Below, piece by piece: positions 4,911 through 27,479 of a stretch of 64,000 nucleotides of DNA; the first letter of the stretch is position 1, and every line of letters starts with the position of its first letter. A model generated the notes under the pieces. It saw nothing but the letters and a program-made list of their open reading frames with translations. It was not told the origin of the DNA and ran no database searches. The DNA lies in contig CAZOBN010000004.1 of NCBI GenBank assembly GCA_964577835.1, positions 396 through 64,395 on the forward strand, read 5' to 3'. Made by a program: the position numbers and the translations under genes. Source of the DNA: an uncultured Rhizobiaceae bacterium (lineage in GTDB: Bacteria; Pseudomonadota; Alphaproteobacteria; SMXQ01).

Positions 4911-5840
4911 ATGGTCCTTTTGCTGAAAGGCGGACGGGAGCCGATCGAAAGCTGGCTGGCCGCATTCGGCAAGGTATCCCCCGACCTCGAGGTGCGCGTA
5001 TGGCCCGATTTCGGCCGACGGGAAGACGTCGAATTCGCGCTGGTGTCGCACATGCCGCACGGTGAGCTGGCGACATTTCCCAATCTGCGCTTCATCGCTT
5101 CCATGTCGGTCGGCGTCGAGCATCTGCTCGAGGATCCGCAACTGCCCCCGAATGTGCCGCTGGTGCGCAGCGTCAATCCGCAGCGCTCGGCGACCATGGC
5201 GCAGTATGTGCTCCTCCATGTGCTGCGCTACTTTCGCCGCTTCCCGGATTATCAAGCGCAGCAGCGGGCAAAGCACTGGGAGCGCCTGCCGCAGCGCGAC
5301 GCCAAGGATCTGCGCGTCGGGATCATGGGGCTGGGCTCGCTCGGCTTGGCCGCCGCGCAGCAGCTTCGCCAATGCGGCTTCGATGTGGCCGGCTGGACGC
5401 GCACGCCGCACAGCCACGACGGCATCGCCAATTTCGTCGGCCGCGACGGATTTCTTCCGTTCCTGGCGCGCAGCGATATCCTGGTCTGCCAACTGCCACT
5501 GACGCGCGAGACTCAGGACATCCTCGATGCCCGCGCGCTCGCCGCCTTGCCACGCGGCGCCTATGTCATCAATACGGCGCGCGGCGAACATGTGGTCGAG
5601 GAGGATCTGCTGGCGGCGCTCGAGTCCGGGCATATCGCCGGCGCCACCCTCGACGTGTTCCGCGAGGAGCCTCTGCCGGCCGATCATCCTTTCTGGATTC
5701 ACCCAAAAGTCACCATTACCCCCCACAACTCCTGCGATGGCCGCGCCGCCCATGGCGCGATCACCATCGCCGACAATATCCGGCGCGCCCGCGAAGGCCG
5801 CCCCCTCGTCAATCTGGTGGATCGCGCCGCCGGCTATTGA
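4911..5840 (+). CDS. D-isomer-specific 2-hydroxyacid dehydrogenase (glyoxylate/hydroxypyruvate reductase A-like)
   Basis: NAD-binding GxGxxG (GIMGLGSLG), plus the catalytic-region pattern NTARG...D and H near the C-terminus (ITPHNS). Confidence 0.75.
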   Translation: MVLLLKGGREPIESWLAAFGKVSPDLEVRVWPDFGRREDVEFALVSHMPHGELATFPNLRFIASMSVGVEHLLEDPQLPPNVPLVRSVNPQRSATMAQYVLLHVLRYFRRFPDYQAQQRAKHWERLPQRDAKDLRVGIMGLGSLGLAAAQQLRQCGFDVAGWTRTPHSHDGIANFVGRDGFLPFLARSDILVCQLPLTRETQDILDARALAALPRGAYVINTARGEHVVEEDLLAALESGHIAGATLDVFREEPLPADHPFWIHPKVTITPHNSCDGRAAHGAITIADNIRRAREGRPLVNLVDRAAGY

Positions 5841-6139: not shown

Positions 6140-6838
6140 TCAGGCGAGCGCGATCGCGGCGAAGCTCTCCGCCTGCGGCCCCTGCCCTTTGGCCTGGGCC
6201 TCGCCGGGGCGGCGCAGTTGCACGGTGTGCAGGCCGGCGGCGCGGGCCGCCGCGATCTCGTCGGTGCTGTCGGACAGGAACAGCATGCGCGACGCGGGCA
6301 TGCCGATCGCAGCCGCGATCCTGCGATAGCTGTCGGCTTCTTTCTTCGGACCCGTCGTGGTGTCGAAATAGCCGGAGAACAGCGGCGTGAGGTCGCCGAA
6401 TTTCGTATGGCCGAAGATCAGCTTCTGCGCCGGCACCGAACCGGAGGAATAGACGTAGAGCTTTTTGCCCGCCCGATGCCAGCGGCGCAGGGCCTCGGCG
6501 GCATCGTCGTAGATATGACCCTGGAAGCCGCCGGCCTTGTAGCCCTCGGCCCAGATCATGCCCTGCAGCGCCTTGAGCGGCGTCGCCTTGCGGTCCTCGT
6601 CGATCCAGCGCCGCAGAACGGCGACCACCGCCTCGTCCGACATGGCCGGATCGCCCGCCTCGCGCTTGGCCGCGTCAAGCTCGGCGCGCACCGCCGGCTC
6701 GCGCCCATGCGCCGCGACGAACCCGTTCAGGTTCGCCCGCGCATAGGGAAACAGCACGTCATGGACGAAAGAGATGGCGGTGGTCGTGCCCTCGATATCG
6801 GTGACGATGGCATCGATGGGCGCTTGAATCGTCGCCAT
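6140..6838 (-). CDS. mtnC: enolase-phosphatase E1 (methionine salvage)
   Basis: HAD motif [23 protein letters not shown], and the typical MtnC C-terminal HAD motifs. Its ATG overlaps the mtnD stop (ATGA). Confidence 0.85.
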
Positions 6839-7401
6839 CAGGCGACTGCGGCGACCGGCTCGTCGATCGTCGGGAAGCTCTGGGAAATCGTGCTGCCGGT
6901 GAACTTCGCCACCCAGCCCGCCGGATCGGTGAACAGCCGGATGCAGGCCAGGTGCGGCTCGGCGCCCATGTCGAACCAGTGGGTCGTGCCGGCGGGCACG
7001 CTGATCAGGTCGCCCTTCTGGCACAGCACGCCATAGACCTTGCCTTGGGCATGAAGGTAGAACAGCCCGCGGCCATCGACGAAGAAGCGCACTTCGTCCT
7101 CCTCATGGATATGCTCGTTGAGGAATTTCTGGCGCAGGGCGGCCTTGTCCGGATTGTCCTTGGTCAGGCTGATCACGTCGGCCGTTTTGTAGCCGCATGC
7201 GCGCATCAACCGATCGACAGGCTGGCGGTAGGCGGCCAGGACCGCGTCCTGCGACGCGCCCGCGGCGACCGGCTGAGCGGCCTGCCAGCGTTCGAAACGC
7301 ACGCCGATCGCCTGGAGATGACGCGCCATCTCGGCGCCCTCGCTGGTGTCGACCAGCGGCTCGGACGGCTTGTCCTCGTGATAGACTTTCAGATTGCTCA
7401 T
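6838..7401 (-). CDS. mtnD: acireductone dioxygenase (ARD, cupin)
   Basis: Cupin metal motifs ([12 protein letters not shown] ... GTTHWF). Start set at [10 protein letters not shown]. Confidence 0.85.
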
Positions 7402-23883: not shown

Positions 23884-23985
23884 GGGGCGCGACTTTATCC
23901 GCCCGCAGGACGGCAAACAATCAAACTTGACGGAATAGATGGCTCGAAGGCAGGCTGCGATGGAATATGGAACGCCTAAAACAAG

Positions 23986-24011
23986 GGCGATATTATACTT
24001 TGCAAACCCAC
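23986..24011. repeat. left terminal inverted repeat of the IS1595-family element
   Basis: GGCGATATTATACTTTGCAAACCCAC, the exact reverse complement of 26844-26869. Confidence 0.9.
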
Positions 24012-24055
24012 AGCCCCTCGGTAGTATCGCCTGGTAACTACCGGGGAGAGGGACT

Positions 24056-24331
24056 ATGGCTAACAACATCTTTGTGTCCTATGACCTTAACAACCCAGGT
24101 CAGAACTACGAGACGGTCATTGCGGAAATAAAAAAGCACGGCACTTGGGTAAAGGTCGAATACTCACTGTTTTTTCTGAGCACCGACGAATCTCCAAAGT
24201 CTATCGCTGAGGCGGTCTGGCGCGTGATGGACCAAAACGACCGCCTCATTGTCATTGATGCCAAGAACAACCAAGGCTATTGGTACTTGCCTGATAGCGT
24301 CAATGACGCGCTCCAAAGACTGTGGACTTGA
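24056..24331 (+). CDS. hypothetical 91-aa passenger protein (Cas2/VapD-like beta-alpha-beta pattern, inference only)
   Basis: A purine-rich GGGGAGAGGG lies upstream of the ATG. IFVSYDL ... HGTWVKVEYSLFFL ... NDRLIVIDA resembles the ferredoxin-like Cas2 layout. Low GC. Confidence 0.55.
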   Translation: MANNIFVSYDLNNPGQNYETVIAEIKKHGTWVKVEYSLFFLSTDESPKSIAEAVWRVMDQNDRLIVIDAKNNQGYWYLPDSVNDALQRLWT

Positions 24332-24465
24332 ACGAACGCGGGCTCCGGCCAAGCGGGATGCCATCGACATGGATGAGCACACCAACTGCCTTGGCGAGGC
24401 AGTGAAGTAGAGCCAGCTTCCAGCGCCTATACGGGATGAGATCGTAATTCATGCTTCTCTCCTAC

Positions 24466-24500
24466 GAAAAACCCCGGCTCACTTGGCCGGGGTTTTCTTC
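24466..24500. terminator. bidirectional rho-independent terminator inside the IS cargo
   Basis: AAAACCCCGGC-TCACTTG-GCCGGGGTTTT stem-loop with A/T runs on both sides. The stop codon of the 53-aa ORF lies in the loop. Confidence 0.6.
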
Positions 24501-24640
24501 TTTTCCGCCTTCTTCGGCGGAACTGGTTTGGCTATTCGCCGCAGCTTTTCTTCGAAAGCCGCTTCGTTCTCATCGCATCCCAGTTCGCGCGCCTTGGCGG
24601 CGAATGTCTGGGCTTGGGATGGTGTTTTCTTTTTCTTCAT
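24479..24640 (-). CDS. unannotated 53-aa Lys-rich ORF, translationally coupled to the PIN gene
   Basis: My own translation: MKKKKTPSQAQTFAAKARELGCDENEAAFEEKLRRIAKPVPPKKAEKKKTPAK. Its ATG overlaps the PIN stop (ATGA). It ends in the terminator loop and is shorter than anything listed in the supplied ORF track. Confidence 0.55.
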   Translation of the reverse strand: MKKKKTPSQAQTFAAKARELGCDENEAAFEEKLRRIAKPVPPKKAEKKKTPAK

Positions 24641-25104
24641 TTTGGGGCTTCCAATGGAAGCTTCGGCTCACGCCAATAGGGCCGTTCAATCGTAAGAACT
24701 GGGTTTCCCAGCGAGCCTGATTTCCCGATCAAGGGAATATCGAATGTGTTCAACAGCTCAAGCCCAGCGTCGAGCGCTGTAGCAACGTGAAGTGCGTCCT
24801 TCGGTTTAACCCCATGGCCCCAGACGTATTCACGCGCCTGCTCTGATACCCGCCGAGTGATATTCCGAACGACAATGTAGTCGTTTCTGAAAAACGCCTC
24901 CACCTTAGCCCGCATTGAAGCTGGTATCGGTGGCGCACCACGGAGCGCTAAAACCTCAGCGATAGTTAGGGCGGATGTAACGATCAAAACCTTGCCTTCC
25001 TCTGCCGCCTCTAAAACTTGGCGACAGGATTCCTCCTTATTGGGCTCGGCCTGAAGCCAGCCCAAGAAGCAATCAGAGTCCCAGTATCGACGCTCTATGG
25101 TCAA
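24637..25104 (-). CDS. PIN-domain nuclease (VapC-like toxin)
   Basis: Acidic PIN residues in the expected order: YWDSDCFLGWL, TIAEV, KDALHVATAL, LLNTFD. TTG start overlaps the upstream stop (TTGA). Confidence 0.85.
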   Translation of the reverse strand: MTIERRYWDSDCFLGWLQAEPNKEESCRQVLEAAEEGKVLIVTSALTIAEVLALRGAPPIPASMRAKVEAFFRNDYIVVRNITRRVSEQAREYVWGHGVKPKDALHVATALDAGLELLNTFDIPLIGKSGSLGNPVLTIERPYWREPKLPLEAPK

Positions 25105-25859
25105 GATTGGTGTCGCAATATCCCGTGAACATCCCGATAAGAGGGAATGGTTTCTCTTGGTGGAAACGCAACTATGTCCTCTACGTCGATACTGACCGGA
25201 CGCCCGTCCTTGCGGTATTTCACAAGTCCGTAAACTTCAACTCGTTGACCAAAAGCGTCGAACGCTTGCTTCATTAAGTGTTCTGGGATCAAGCAGCGTA
25301 TCGGCCGATCCCATAAACTGTCATAGACAATAAATTGCAAACGACCGCGCTCCGTCACCGTCTGAAGTCGCCCTTCAATAGAGCCGTGATCCTCATGTTC
25401 AGTAGCTAGAAGATCGCTCACATGCGCTACAGCCTTTTGAGTGACCTTGACCGGCTCTTTGCGAACCCAAACATTGACTACCGTATCATCGTGATCAGAA
25501 GCGCCAGTGACGCGACCTAGGTCCCTGAGACTCTTGAGCGCGCGCTCGTTGAAGAAATCCGGAACGGACGCTTCGCCCTCAACCTGGGCGATACCCCGTG
25601 CAACAGCGTCAGTGATAACCGCGACAGCCGCTTGGTCGAATCCCGGCCTAGGCATAACTCCAACGAGATTGCTTCCTTTCTTCACTTGCACAAGCCAATC
25701 CACCGGCTTGTCACTTACCGTCTTACTAACCTCGGTCAAAATGGCAAAGAAGGACCGCACGCTGCGCAAGAACTTATCTGGCGTAACGGCGTGTCCGCTG
25801 ATTTCCAGCGTAAGATCGGCGTCTATGTCACCACGAACGGCCACAACGGAATCCTCCAA
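25101..25859 (-). CDS. orphan 247-252-aa protein upstream of PIN (no recognisable domain)
   Basis: Open frame with coherent composition. The likely true start is GTG at 25844, 7 nt after GGAGGA; the ORF-track start is TTG at 25859. I saw no HTH, RHH or AbrB motif. The C-terminal half (GSIEGRLQTVTERGRLQFIVYD...RVEVYGLVKYRKDGRPVSIDVEDI) looks like a small beta-barrel. Confidence 0.7.
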   Translation of the reverse strand: MEDSVVAVRGDIDADLTLEISGHAVTPDKFLRSVRSFFAILTEVSKTVSDKPVDWLVQVKKGSNLVGVMPRPGFDQAAVAVITDAVARGIAQVEGEASVPDFFNERALKSLRDLGRVTGASDHDDTVVNVWVRKEPVKVTQKAVAHVSDLLATEHEDHGSIEGRLQTVTERGRLQFIVYDSLWDRPIRCLIPEHLMKQAFDAFGQRVEVYGLVKYRKDGRPVSIDVEDIVAFPPRETIPSYRDVHGILRHQS

Positions 25860-25868
25860 AGAGGATTC
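25849..25868 (-). promoter_or_regulatory. 8-bp hairpin that sequesters the Shine-Dalgarno of the orphan cargo gene and includes the last base of the transposase stop codon
   Basis: On the mRNA strand the sequence is GAAUCCUC-UUUG-GAGGAUUC. The 3' arm contains most of the GGAGGA Shine-Dalgarno (its first G is the last loop base) and the 5' arm starts at the G of the transposase UAG. Confidence 0.5.
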
Positions 25869-26803
25869 TACACGGACGAGTCCCGGTAGGTAAGCCGTTT
25901 TCCGACAATTCCAGTAAGCGCCATGTTTGCACGCTGGTCGTCACTGAAGCCCAACGCTTGCCGTCCGTTATACCGGAAATCGAACTCGGCCAGATAGCGA
26001 TGAAGGTGTTTCTTGCCGCAGTGCTGATAGACACCCTTCATGCCACGCTTGAAGATGCTGAAAAACCCCTCAATCGTATTCGTGTGTATCTCGCCCCGGC
26101 CATATTCGCCCATTCCGTGACGCACCACGCCATGGTCCGCGAACTCGCGCCCAACGAGCGTGTAATAGGATGCTTCGTCAGTCATGAGACGCGCCTCTTT
26201 GGCGAGATTTTCATGAACGAGCGGCGCAAGGGTCTTGGCGCTCACATCATCAACAACCATGCTCCGGGCTTTCCCGGCGTTTCGGTCAACCAAGGACAGA
26301 ACCTTGAACTTGTGGTGATAGCCACGGCCCTTCTTCTGGCCGCGCGGCTTCTTCGTCTTGTCGCGACCAATGAACGTCTCATCAACCTCGACCGCGCCGC
26401 CGTCGCTGCCAAACGGCAGGAGATTGCCAGCCCGCATCGCTTCGCGCAAACGGTGAGACATGAACCACGCGGTCTTGAGCGTGACGCCCAAGGTCCGGTG
26501 AAGCTGGTTAGAGCTTATACCCTTCTTGCTGGACGCCATCAGATAGGCCGCCTGTAACCAGAGATTAAGGGCAACGTGGCTGGACTCGAAAACGGTCCCG
26601 ACTTTGACGGTAAACTGCTTACGGCAGGAGCCGCACTTGAGAAGGCCGAGGCGCACACGCTTCTCAGCATTCGCCTTTATCCGGTAAACCTTCTCGCACT
26701 CGCCACAGTGCGGGCAGAATGGGCCCTGCGGCCATACGATGCTCTCCAGCTTCGCGAAGGCGGCGGCTTCATCGTGGAAGTAGGGGCGAGAAAGAATGCT
26801 CAT
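25868..26803 (-). CDS. IS1595-family (ISXO2-like) transposase
   Basis: N-terminal zinc ribbon CPHCG...CGSC, an HTH-like region SSNQLHRTLGVTLKTAWFMSHRLR, and a DDE region (VEVDETFIG ... LMTDEASYY ... HTNTIEGFFS). Start set at MSILSRPYF, after AGAGGA. Confidence 0.9.
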   Translation of the reverse strand: MSILSRPYFHDEAAAFAKLESIVWPQGPFCPHCGECEKVYRIKANAEKRVRLGLLKCGSCRKQFTVKVGTVFESSHVALNLWLQAAYLMASSKKGISSNQLHRTLGVTLKTAWFMSHRLREAMRAGNLLPFGSDGGAVEVDETFIGRDKTKKPRGQKKGRGYHHKFKVLSLVDRNAGKARSMVVDDVSAKTLAPLVHENLAKEARLMTDEASYYTLVGREFADHGVVRHGMGEYGRGEIHTNTIEGFFSIFKRGMKGVYQHCGKKHLHRYLAEFDFRYNGRQALGFSDDQRANMALTGIVGKRLTYRDSSV

Positions 26804-26843
26804 GTCCGTATCCTCTGATTTCGAGAATACTAGCATCTTTCAA

Positions 26844-26869
26844 GTGGGTTTGCAAAGTATAATATCGCC
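26844..26869. repeat. right terminal inverted repeat of the IS1595-family element
   Basis: GTGGGTTTGCAAAGTATAATATCGCC, the exact reverse complement of 23986-24011. Confidence 0.9.
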
Positions 26870-26905
26870 AAAACAAGACCGCCGGACGCTTGAGCGTCCG
26901 GCGGT
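26870..26905 (-). terminator. rho-independent terminator of the cold-shock gene (its U-tract is the IS target site)
   Basis: On the minus strand, ACCGCCGGACGC-TCAA-GCGTCCGGCGGT is followed by CTTGTTTT. That tract is the right-hand copy of the 8-bp target duplication. Confidence 0.65.
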
Positions 26906-26936: not shown

Positions 26937-27479
26937 TCAGCCCATGCGAATGTCGGCGGCCTGCGGTCCCTTGGGGCCGTCGGTGATGACCACTTCCACC
27001 TGCTGCCCGGGTTCGAGCTGCTGGATGCCGGCGCGGCGCAGCGTGACGACATGCACGAAGACATCCCGCTGGCTATCGGCCAATGAAACGAAACCGTAGC
27101 CCTTCTCGGTGTTGAACCATTTCACGGCAGCCGGCGTATAGCTGCTGTCGTCCGCGAGCGACGCGGGCGCCTGCTCGATGGAATCGCGCAGCGGTCGCGC
27201 GACGGGCTTGGCGGTCGAGCAGTCGACCTCGACAATGCGGGTTACCTGCAGGCCTTTGGCCCGCTTTGCGACCTCGCAAAGAATCGTCGCCCCCGGCTGC
27301 AGCTCCTGATAACCCGCGTCACGCAACACGGACAGGTGAAGGAATGCATCATTCGACCCGTCAGACGGCGTTACGAAGCCAAAGCCTTTAACCGCATTGA
27401 ACCACTTCACCGTACCGCGCATTTCCTCGGTCTGAATTGGACCGGAATTGTCCGCGGAACTGAAATCTACCATTTGCAA
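26937..27479 (-). CDS. tandem cold-shock-domain protein
   Basis: Two CSDs, each with RNP-like motifs: [15 protein letters not shown]...DAFLH and [15 protein letters not shown]...DVFVH. Confidence 0.85.

Follow-up and report, generated by a model that had tools for sequence, protein, structure and literature searches.

We find that three minus-strand open reading frames (ORFs) in a 64,000-nucleotide stretch of DNA from an uncultured Rhizobiaceae bacterium (contig CAZOBN010000004.1, positions 396 to 64,395 of the forward strand; hereafter the window) are the constant interior, a passenger operon, of a complete transporter insertion sequence (IS) of the IS1595 family located at 23986-26869. Behind the transposase gene they encode, in this order, a protein of 247 amino acids (aa) with a predicted C-terminal OB fold, a PIN nuclease and a small basic protein. 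The unit of transposase and trio has co-diverged across phyla. We put it at roughly even that the trio is a retention module in which a PIN toxin and a non-canonical partner are expressed in step with the transposase. An earlier note, made from the letters of the window, had described the three ORFs as a candidate toxin-type module carried by an IS; its observation is confirmed, whereas its interpretation is partly supported.

The element and its passenger operon

The boundaries of the element and the four genes of the operon, with their expression signals, are as follows.

23978-23985, no strand: left 8-bp target-site duplication, AAAACAAG, identical to 26870-26877
23986-24011, plus strand: terminal inverted repeat at the transposase-distal end, GGCGATATTATACTTTGCAAACCCAC, 26 nt, 100% complementary to 26844-26869
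24468-24496, minus strand: intrinsic terminator hairpin closing the four-gene operon, a 12-pair stem followed by a T-run
24479-24640, minus strand: small basic protein, 53 aa, ATG start, 16 Lys and Arg residues, isoelectric point 10.1
24637-25104, minus strand: PIN nuclease, 155 aa, VapC-like, TTG start, PF01850 E=1.6e-13
25101-25844, minus strand: 247-aa partner protein, GTG start at 25844, frame open from TTG 25859
25849-25868, minus strand: RNA hairpin GAAUCCUC-UUUG-GAGGAUUC, beginning at the last base of the transposase stop codon
25868-26836, minus strand: IS1595-family transposase with Zn ribbon and DDE domain, likely start ATG 26803, 311 aa
26844-26869, minus strand: terminal inverted repeat at the transposase-proximal end, pairing with 23986-24011
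26870-26877, no strand: right 8-bp target-site duplication, AAAACAAG, which is the T-tract of the terminator of a host csp gene

The insertion is recent and spans 2,884 bp. Its 26-bp inverted repeat occurs twice in the whole window, with a chance expectation of 0, and the G+C content is 51-59% within the element versus 63-73% in the flanks. Target duplications of 8 bp are a hallmark of the IS1595 family (PMC8101967), and the DDE domain, the Zn ribbon and the inverted repeats of that family are all present. The transposase matches PF12762 in Pfam (E=3e-38, covering 4-153 of 153 positions) and NF033547 in NCBIfam (E=8.9e-59), and its Zn ribbon matches PF12760 (E=1.9e-11, residues 22-74); the alignments of its homologues begin at residue 8-13 or thereabouts. 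A simple member of the family is defined by a single transposase gene; here the inverted repeats enclose four more ORFs, and the element is therefore a transporter IS.

All four genes of the operon are read in one orientation, from the transposase through the 247-aa protein, the PIN nuclease and the small basic protein to the terminator. The chaining of the three minus-strand ORFs noted earlier is read directly from the DNA: the TGA stop of the 247-aa gene overlaps the TTG start of the PIN gene in TTGA, and the TGA stop of the PIN gene overlaps the ATG of the small ORF in ATGA. The strong terminator is there too, with the stop codon of the small ORF lying in its hairpin loop. Since the 247-aa protein, the PIN protein and the small ORF all have homologues, conservation rules out chance ORFs; the stop-start overlap between the partner and PIN genes is likewise kept among relatives. 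GTG 25844 is taken as the real start of the partner gene, giving the expected length of 247 aa, because homologues begin with 'MA...' and a GGAGG Shine-Dalgarno sequence lies 8 nt upstream. The GTG and TTG starts had also been read as a device for stoichiometry control. These starts do exist in the window, but ATG starts are common in relatives, so the argument does not generalise and weak start codons are ruled out as a family-wide device.

In all elements the stop codon of the transposase is separated from the partner start by 15-40 nt (23 nt in the window). Here the junction folds into the hairpin at 25849-25868 (dG -11.9 kcal/mol, z=-3.2, a stability reached in 0 of 200 shuffles), which pairs with and occludes the GGAGG Shine-Dalgarno sequence of the 247-aa gene. 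Hairpins at the same position are found by single-sequence folds in most alphaproteobacterial relatives, among them the loci L001 (5400-5422, z=-4.3), L028 (188-216), L022, L032 and L006, and their stem sequences differ. RNAalifold on a MAFFT alignment of the transposase/partner junction gave no consensus; loop lengths differ. Together, the junction hairpin and the 4-nt overlaps downstream suggest that the trio is translated only alongside the transposase. In such an arrangement a single transcript would run from the transposase end through all four genes. The hairpin, by masking the ribosome-binding site of the 247-aa gene, would couple its translation to translation termination on the transposase gene, and the PIN gene and the small ORF would be coupled in turn through their 4-nt overlaps.

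Recurrence and co-divergence of the four-gene unit

Genome, metagenome, contig-lookup and plasmid searches gathered 40 loci, four of them from the metagenome scan. Recurrence of the trio is borne out by this neighbourhood survey: the order transposase-partner-PIN-small is found at L001, L004, L006, L008, L010-12, L014, L022, L026, L028, L032-35, L038 and L039. Nine insertions with this order are bounded by perfect 8-bp duplications (the window, L001, L004, L008, L010, L011, L014, L026 and L039), the eight outside the window being spread over seven contigs. All nine have related inverted repeats with the core TATACTTGACAAACCC (ends GGCGATATTAT in the window, GGCGATTAT in L004, GGCAATTAT in L014 and GGGGATTAT in L039) and lengths of 2.4-2.9 kb. 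These ends and lengths would fit the ISNwi1(+) subgroup of IS1595 in ISfinder, for which ends of the form ggnnatTAT and a length of 1.75-4.75 kb with passengers are reported.

One genome, OZ251221.1, carries three identical copies of 2,833 bp (L010-12), two of them with different target duplications, and the four-gene unit therefore transposes as a whole. Hence the trio does lie inside an IS, as had been supposed, but it is not incidental cargo: the real unit is the transposase together with the trio. The L012 copy has no target duplication, which suggests recombination between copies. Hosts of the four-gene unit include Alphaproteobacteria, Thermodesulfobacteriota, unclassified bacteria and a Roseomonas plasmid of a cultured strain; a transposase-deleted derivative is found in Sedimentisphaerales, and a Methylobacterium plasmid has the same four-gene order with ends not identified. 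Pairwise protein identities across the nine complete elements are correlated in Mantel tests (transposase-partner r=0.81, p=2e-4; transposase-PIN r=0.76; partner-PIN r=0.94; all p<=0.003). These correlations indicate long-term co-divergence and not repeated capture.

Many solo partner-PIN pairs still keep transposase remnants or the left inverted repeat (L002/3, L013, L016, L021 and L036/37), and two partner proteins, P0281 and P0369, are fused to transposase fragments. Intact pairs free of any transposase also occur, at L024, on a plasmid-like contig beside RepA/ParA, and at L027, beside SocA_Panacea. Conversely, L040 is a plain IS that has a 57%-identical transposase and no module, and among plasmids 209 records have related transposases; three of these were inspected and two have the module, and only a single record was matched in the PIN search. 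Given the plain IS, the plasmid counts and the transposase-free pairs, the module is not required for transposition. The transposase-free intact pairs suggest in addition that the pair is able to function apart from the transposase and, being dispensable for transposition and able to stand alone, it resembles a toxin-antitoxin or defence pair. IS traffic around the modules is nested in L021 and L020; at 4597-7766 of L021 pieces of an IS256-type (Transposase_mut) gene flank a partner-PIN pair.

The same observations bear on the possibility, which we consider very unlikely, that the trio is accessory machinery of transposition, acting on intermediates by second-strand or flap cleavage or by donor processing, or else regulating the transposase, in the manner of TnsA of Tn7 or IstB of IS21. 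The trio shares an operon and a probable translational coupling with the transposase and co-diverges with it, IS copies that are intact or recently decayed are the only ones with the small protein, the OB fold resembles OB folds that bind single-stranded DNA, such as those of exonuclease VII (ExoVII) and single-stranded DNA-binding protein (SSB), and PIN domains are structurally related to nucleases of the flap endonuclease (FEN) type (PMC5499597). Yet the 57%-identical transposase occurs in a plain IS that has no module, most IS1595 members encode a transposase only (PMC8101967), intact pairs occur without transposase, and the PIN protein, small, single-domain and of VapC type, has the build typical of RNase toxins.

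The three passenger proteins

The PIN protein has 907 database homologues. Its acidic active site, on which a toxin reading depends, is intact: D9 (in YWD), E50, D103 (in PKDAxHVA) and D122 (in TFD) do not vary among 12 divergent elements or among 18 database homologues. Sequence and profile searches of the PDB returned no close solved structure, the best match being VapC 7by2 at E=0.5, and by these comparisons the clade is remote from every solved VapC. In the retention reading the PIN protein would act as the toxic effector, an RNase of the Mg-dependent VapC type. PIN genes are broken in several solo copies (L002, L003, L007 and L019). The only unambiguous disruption is an IS5 insertion in L003/L020; at 5750-7036 of L020, which is the same locus as L003, an IS5-like insertion (DUF4096 and DDE_Tnp_1) interrupts the PIN gene. 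Several of these contigs come from long-read metagenome-assembled genomes with possible frameshift errors, and we do not rely on an early decay of PIN in the remnants as evidence of toxicity.

The 247-aa protein belongs to a large family, with 103 homologues in a word-indexed search and 3,360 clusters at 50% identity in a hidden Markov model search of 1.84 billion representatives, of which 1,863 have E<=1e-10; nearly all are 236-257 aa long. It matches no Pfam, NCBIfam, PADLOC or PHROG family and nothing in PDB sequence and profile searches, and its one PADLOC match (PDC-S05, E=0.016) is spurious. The earlier view that it has no helix-turn-helix (HTH), ribbon-helix-helix (RHH) or AbrB domain stands. 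An AlphaFold2 (AF2) model of the whole protein has a predicted local distance difference test score (pLDDT) of 88, and residues 1-148, an alpha/beta domain, reach a pLDDT of 95 and a predicted template-modelling score of 0.90 when modelled alone. Foldseek found no credible PDB counterpart of this N-terminal domain, the best E being 0.04. The C-terminal half, described before as beta-barrel-like, is modelled as a five-strand OB fold in its last 80 or so residues (about 150-226). The best PDB matches of this domain are the OB domains of lysyl-tRNA synthetase (LysRS; anticodon-binding), ExoVII and SSB, at E~1e-3, and in one family member a sub-threshold PF01336 match spans the whole domain. The protein is therefore predicted to consist of a novel alpha/beta N-terminal domain and a C-terminal OB fold. 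Searches by tblastn against plasmids and 50,697 phage genomes found nothing, and none was found in a scan of viral contigs; because profile comparison with hhalign does detect remote homologues on two plasmids, the tblastn negatives reflect sensitivity and not absence. Outside the family searches the only full-length structural relative is BFVD A0A8S5T657 of Myoviridae sp. ctLIM9 (E=2.2e-9, template-modelling score 0.47, 14% identity). As part of a retention module, the co-evolving OB-fold protein would be the cognate neutralising or regulating partner of PIN, a non-canonical antitoxin that has no classical DNA-binding domain.

The 53-aa product of the third ORF is highly basic, as had been noted. 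A basic N-terminus is followed by the helix motif F..A.ELGCDE.E..F...L+.IA and a tail rich in Pro and Lys, and the protein belongs to no Pfam, NCBIfam, PADLOC or PHROG family, nor has it an RHH, AbrB, Phd or HTH domain. A word-indexed search returned four relatives only. In all the intact elements whose downstream sequence was examined (L001, L004, L006, L008, L014, L022, L026, L028, L032, L038 and L039) the small ORF lies 3' of PIN and keeps this motif, and it is recognisable in at least 12 elements other than that of the window. In L010-12 (PIN ORF at 6726-7325 of OZ251221.1) PIN and the small protein form a single in-frame fusion of 199 aa, with the latter at the C-terminus. The small protein accompanies intact IS copies and the transposase-remnant derivatives L013 and L036/37, and was not found in the examined pairs that have no trace of a transposase (L009, L015 and L024). 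In the retention module it may associate with PIN and either provide a tail that binds nucleic acid or act as a second regulator.

Could the small protein itself be the inhibitor? In that tripartite variant it would be the true PIN inhibitor, encoded in reverse order or fused in cis as in L010, and the 247-aa protein would be a specificity, sensor or regulatory subunit. It is better conserved than the 247-aa protein across distant lineages, its motif being kept in the plasmid copies L038/L039, where the partner is detectable by hhalign only; its fusion to PIN occurs in an actively transposing lineage; and basic tails can, as in VapBC structures, plug an acidic PIN site. Yet L009, L015 and L024 are intact pairs without the small ORF, a state that would be lethal if PIN is toxic and no other inhibitor exists, and a permanent fusion of toxin and inhibitor in cis is unusual. 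We judge this variant distinctly unlikely.

Several points weigh against the retention reading. The toxicity of PIN and its binding and neutralisation by the 247-aa protein are what we infer, as would be any role in defence. At three times the size of a VapB, the partner carries no motif recognised as binding DNA or a toxin. Its modelled OB fold suggests nucleic-acid binding and would fit a subunit that recruits substrate as well as it would fit an inhibitor. The broken PIN genes of L002, L003, L007 and L019 could equally result from decay of dead IS copies or from long-read frameshift errors. Finally, the tie of the small protein to intact or remnant IS copies hints at a role related to the IS and not to a toxin-antitoxin function.

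Relation to other mobile modules and to defence systems

What, then, does the trio do for the element that carries it? As a retention module it would be an addiction device for the IS and its recipient replicon, expressed whenever the transposase is. Such a role is the most likely one. It has its analogue in Tn3-family transposons, whose transposition modules contain toxin-antitoxin pairs (Lima-Mendez et al. 2020, mBio, PMC7157771). In both cases a toxin module, PIN-type or other, is built into the transposition module of a transposon with a DDE transposase, with which it is probably co-expressed, and in Tn3 it has been proposed to stabilise the transposon or replicon during invasion. The resemblance is functional only. 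Tn3 elements have a TnpA of ~1000 aa, inverted repeats of 38-40 bp and a resolvase with res site, whereas the present elements are of IS1595 type, with transposases of 311-322 aa and no resolvase or res site. Antitoxins of the Tn3 pairs are of RHH, AbrB, Phd or HTH type, and here the partner is a 247-aa OB-fold protein and a third, small basic protein is present. The Tn3 modules have been acquired repeatedly, whereas this one vertically co-diverges with its transposase.

Likeness to VapBC is limited in a similar manner. The PIN protein has the four conserved acidic residues of such toxins, the partner gene overlaps the toxin start, and RefSeq already labels relatives of the trio 'hypothetical / VapC family toxin / hypothetical'. 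Unlike the antitoxins of VapBC pairs, which have ~70-90 aa and an RHH, AbrB, Phd or HTH domain, the partner is about three times larger, has a predicted OB fold and has no DNA-binding domain. The PIN clade is remote from the solved VapCs (E>=0.5), an additional gene lies downstream, and the 23-nt gap in the IS leaves no room for a promoter or operator of the module's own. Within the IS1595 family, transporter IS (tIS; the ISNwi1+ and ISNha5 groups of ISfinder) share with the present element a Zn-ribbon and DDE transposase, short inverted repeats, 8-bp duplications and passengers between the repeats, whereas the passengers reported elsewhere are transcription regulators, methyltransferases and resistance genes. 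The tIS concept was reportedly introduced for this family by Siguier, Gagnevin and Chandler in 2009. We found no description of the OB-PIN-small trio in the literature, ISfinder entries lying outside that comparison, and in agreement with the earlier note no named toxin-antitoxin or defence system matches it. The module is real and conserved, and we regard it as a new variant both of tIS and of transposon-embedded toxin-antitoxin modules.

A defence function was also considered. The trio might be anti-phage or abortive-infection cargo, in which the OB-fold protein, on sensing a phage nucleic acid or protein, would release or activate PIN, the IS merely spreading the set. PIN effectors are common in defence systems; solo pairs have neighbours of toxin-antitoxin and defence type (HicB, SocA_Panacea, GmrSD and a phage integrase); the Myoviridae contig encodes the full-length structural relative of the 247-aa protein; and the window copy bears an ORF of the phage family phrog_1090. 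Against this, none of the three proteins matches a PADLOC model (PADLOC-DB v2), the 247-aa protein was not found in the 50,697 phage genomes by tblastn or in the viral-contig scan, the tight and co-diverging linkage is to the transposase and not to defence islands, and the module is not kept by the host once the IS decays, PIN being broken in several remnants. Because no defence model matches and the persistent linkage is to the transposase, we favour the retention module and hold a defence role to be unlikely.

An analogy can be drawn with TnpB and IscB of IS200/IS605-type elements, nucleases that are constantly carried beside a transposase, are dispensable for the chemistry of transposition and are thought to favour retention of the element. 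It is an analogy only: TnpB and IscB have a RuvC fold and not a PIN domain, there is no evidence here of a guide RNA, and the mechanism would differ. Speculatively, and with rather small probability, the OB protein, PIN and the basic peptide could form a transposase-coupled nuclease machine of the IS life cycle. The OB protein might then be an antitoxin of a new fold, in which an OB domain of tRNA-anticodon type shields the substrate of PIN or mimics it, or the machine might be an accessory nuclease, either one that acts on intermediates of transposition or one that kills cells once the element is lost. If true, this would be a protein-only counterpart of the TnpB/IscB retention-nuclease idea.

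IS elements are usually viewed as transposase-only, and this lineage has kept the trio through deep divergence, its passengers retaining only 25-40% identity; this points to a function under selection at the level of the element itself. The lineage also offers a naturally occurring case in which the links between addiction-type modules and transposition can be tested. A large unannotated family, that of the 247-aa protein, gains a genomic context, always beside a PIN nuclease and often behind an IS1595 transposase, and the OB-fold protein is nominated as a new kind of PIN partner. Experiments are feasible with the plasmid copies in the cultured strains of Roseomonas marmotae (p1318-1) and Methylobacterium oryzae (pMOC1).

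Some further observations concern the insertion site and the ends of the element. The IS of the window landed exactly in the T-tract of the intrinsic terminator (26870-26905, minus strand) of a two-domain cold-shock gene (26937-27479, minus strand), and the duplications of the other eight insertions are A/T-rich too (TTTTTTTG, CTTTTCTA, AAAAAAAT, TTTTATTA and others), which together suggest a preference for T-runs or terminator tails. In the window the inverted repeat has TTTGCA in place of TTGACA, and a promoter scan found no sigma-70 site. TTGACA lies within the conserved inverted-repeat core of L001, L004, L008 (for example at 4938-4967), L014, L026 and L039; at the transposase-proximal repeat it is a -35-like hexamer facing inward and could serve as part of a transposase promoter. 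One more ORF lies between the operon and the transposase-distal repeat of the window copy.

24056-24331, plus strand: additional passenger, an acidic ORF of 91 aa that converges on the operon and occupies the space from its terminator to the inverted repeat

This ORF matches phrog_1090, whose function is unknown, at E=1.2e-21, and gives weak Cas2-like PADLOC matches (E~1e-3). It explains most of the ~400 bp by which the window copy exceeds its closest relatives. Its absence from all other elements examined rules it out as a member of the conserved module. In L032-L035 an additional conserved ORF of 101 aa lies ~400 bp 3' of the small ORF, and the two cases together suggest that extra small passengers build up at the repeat-proximal end.

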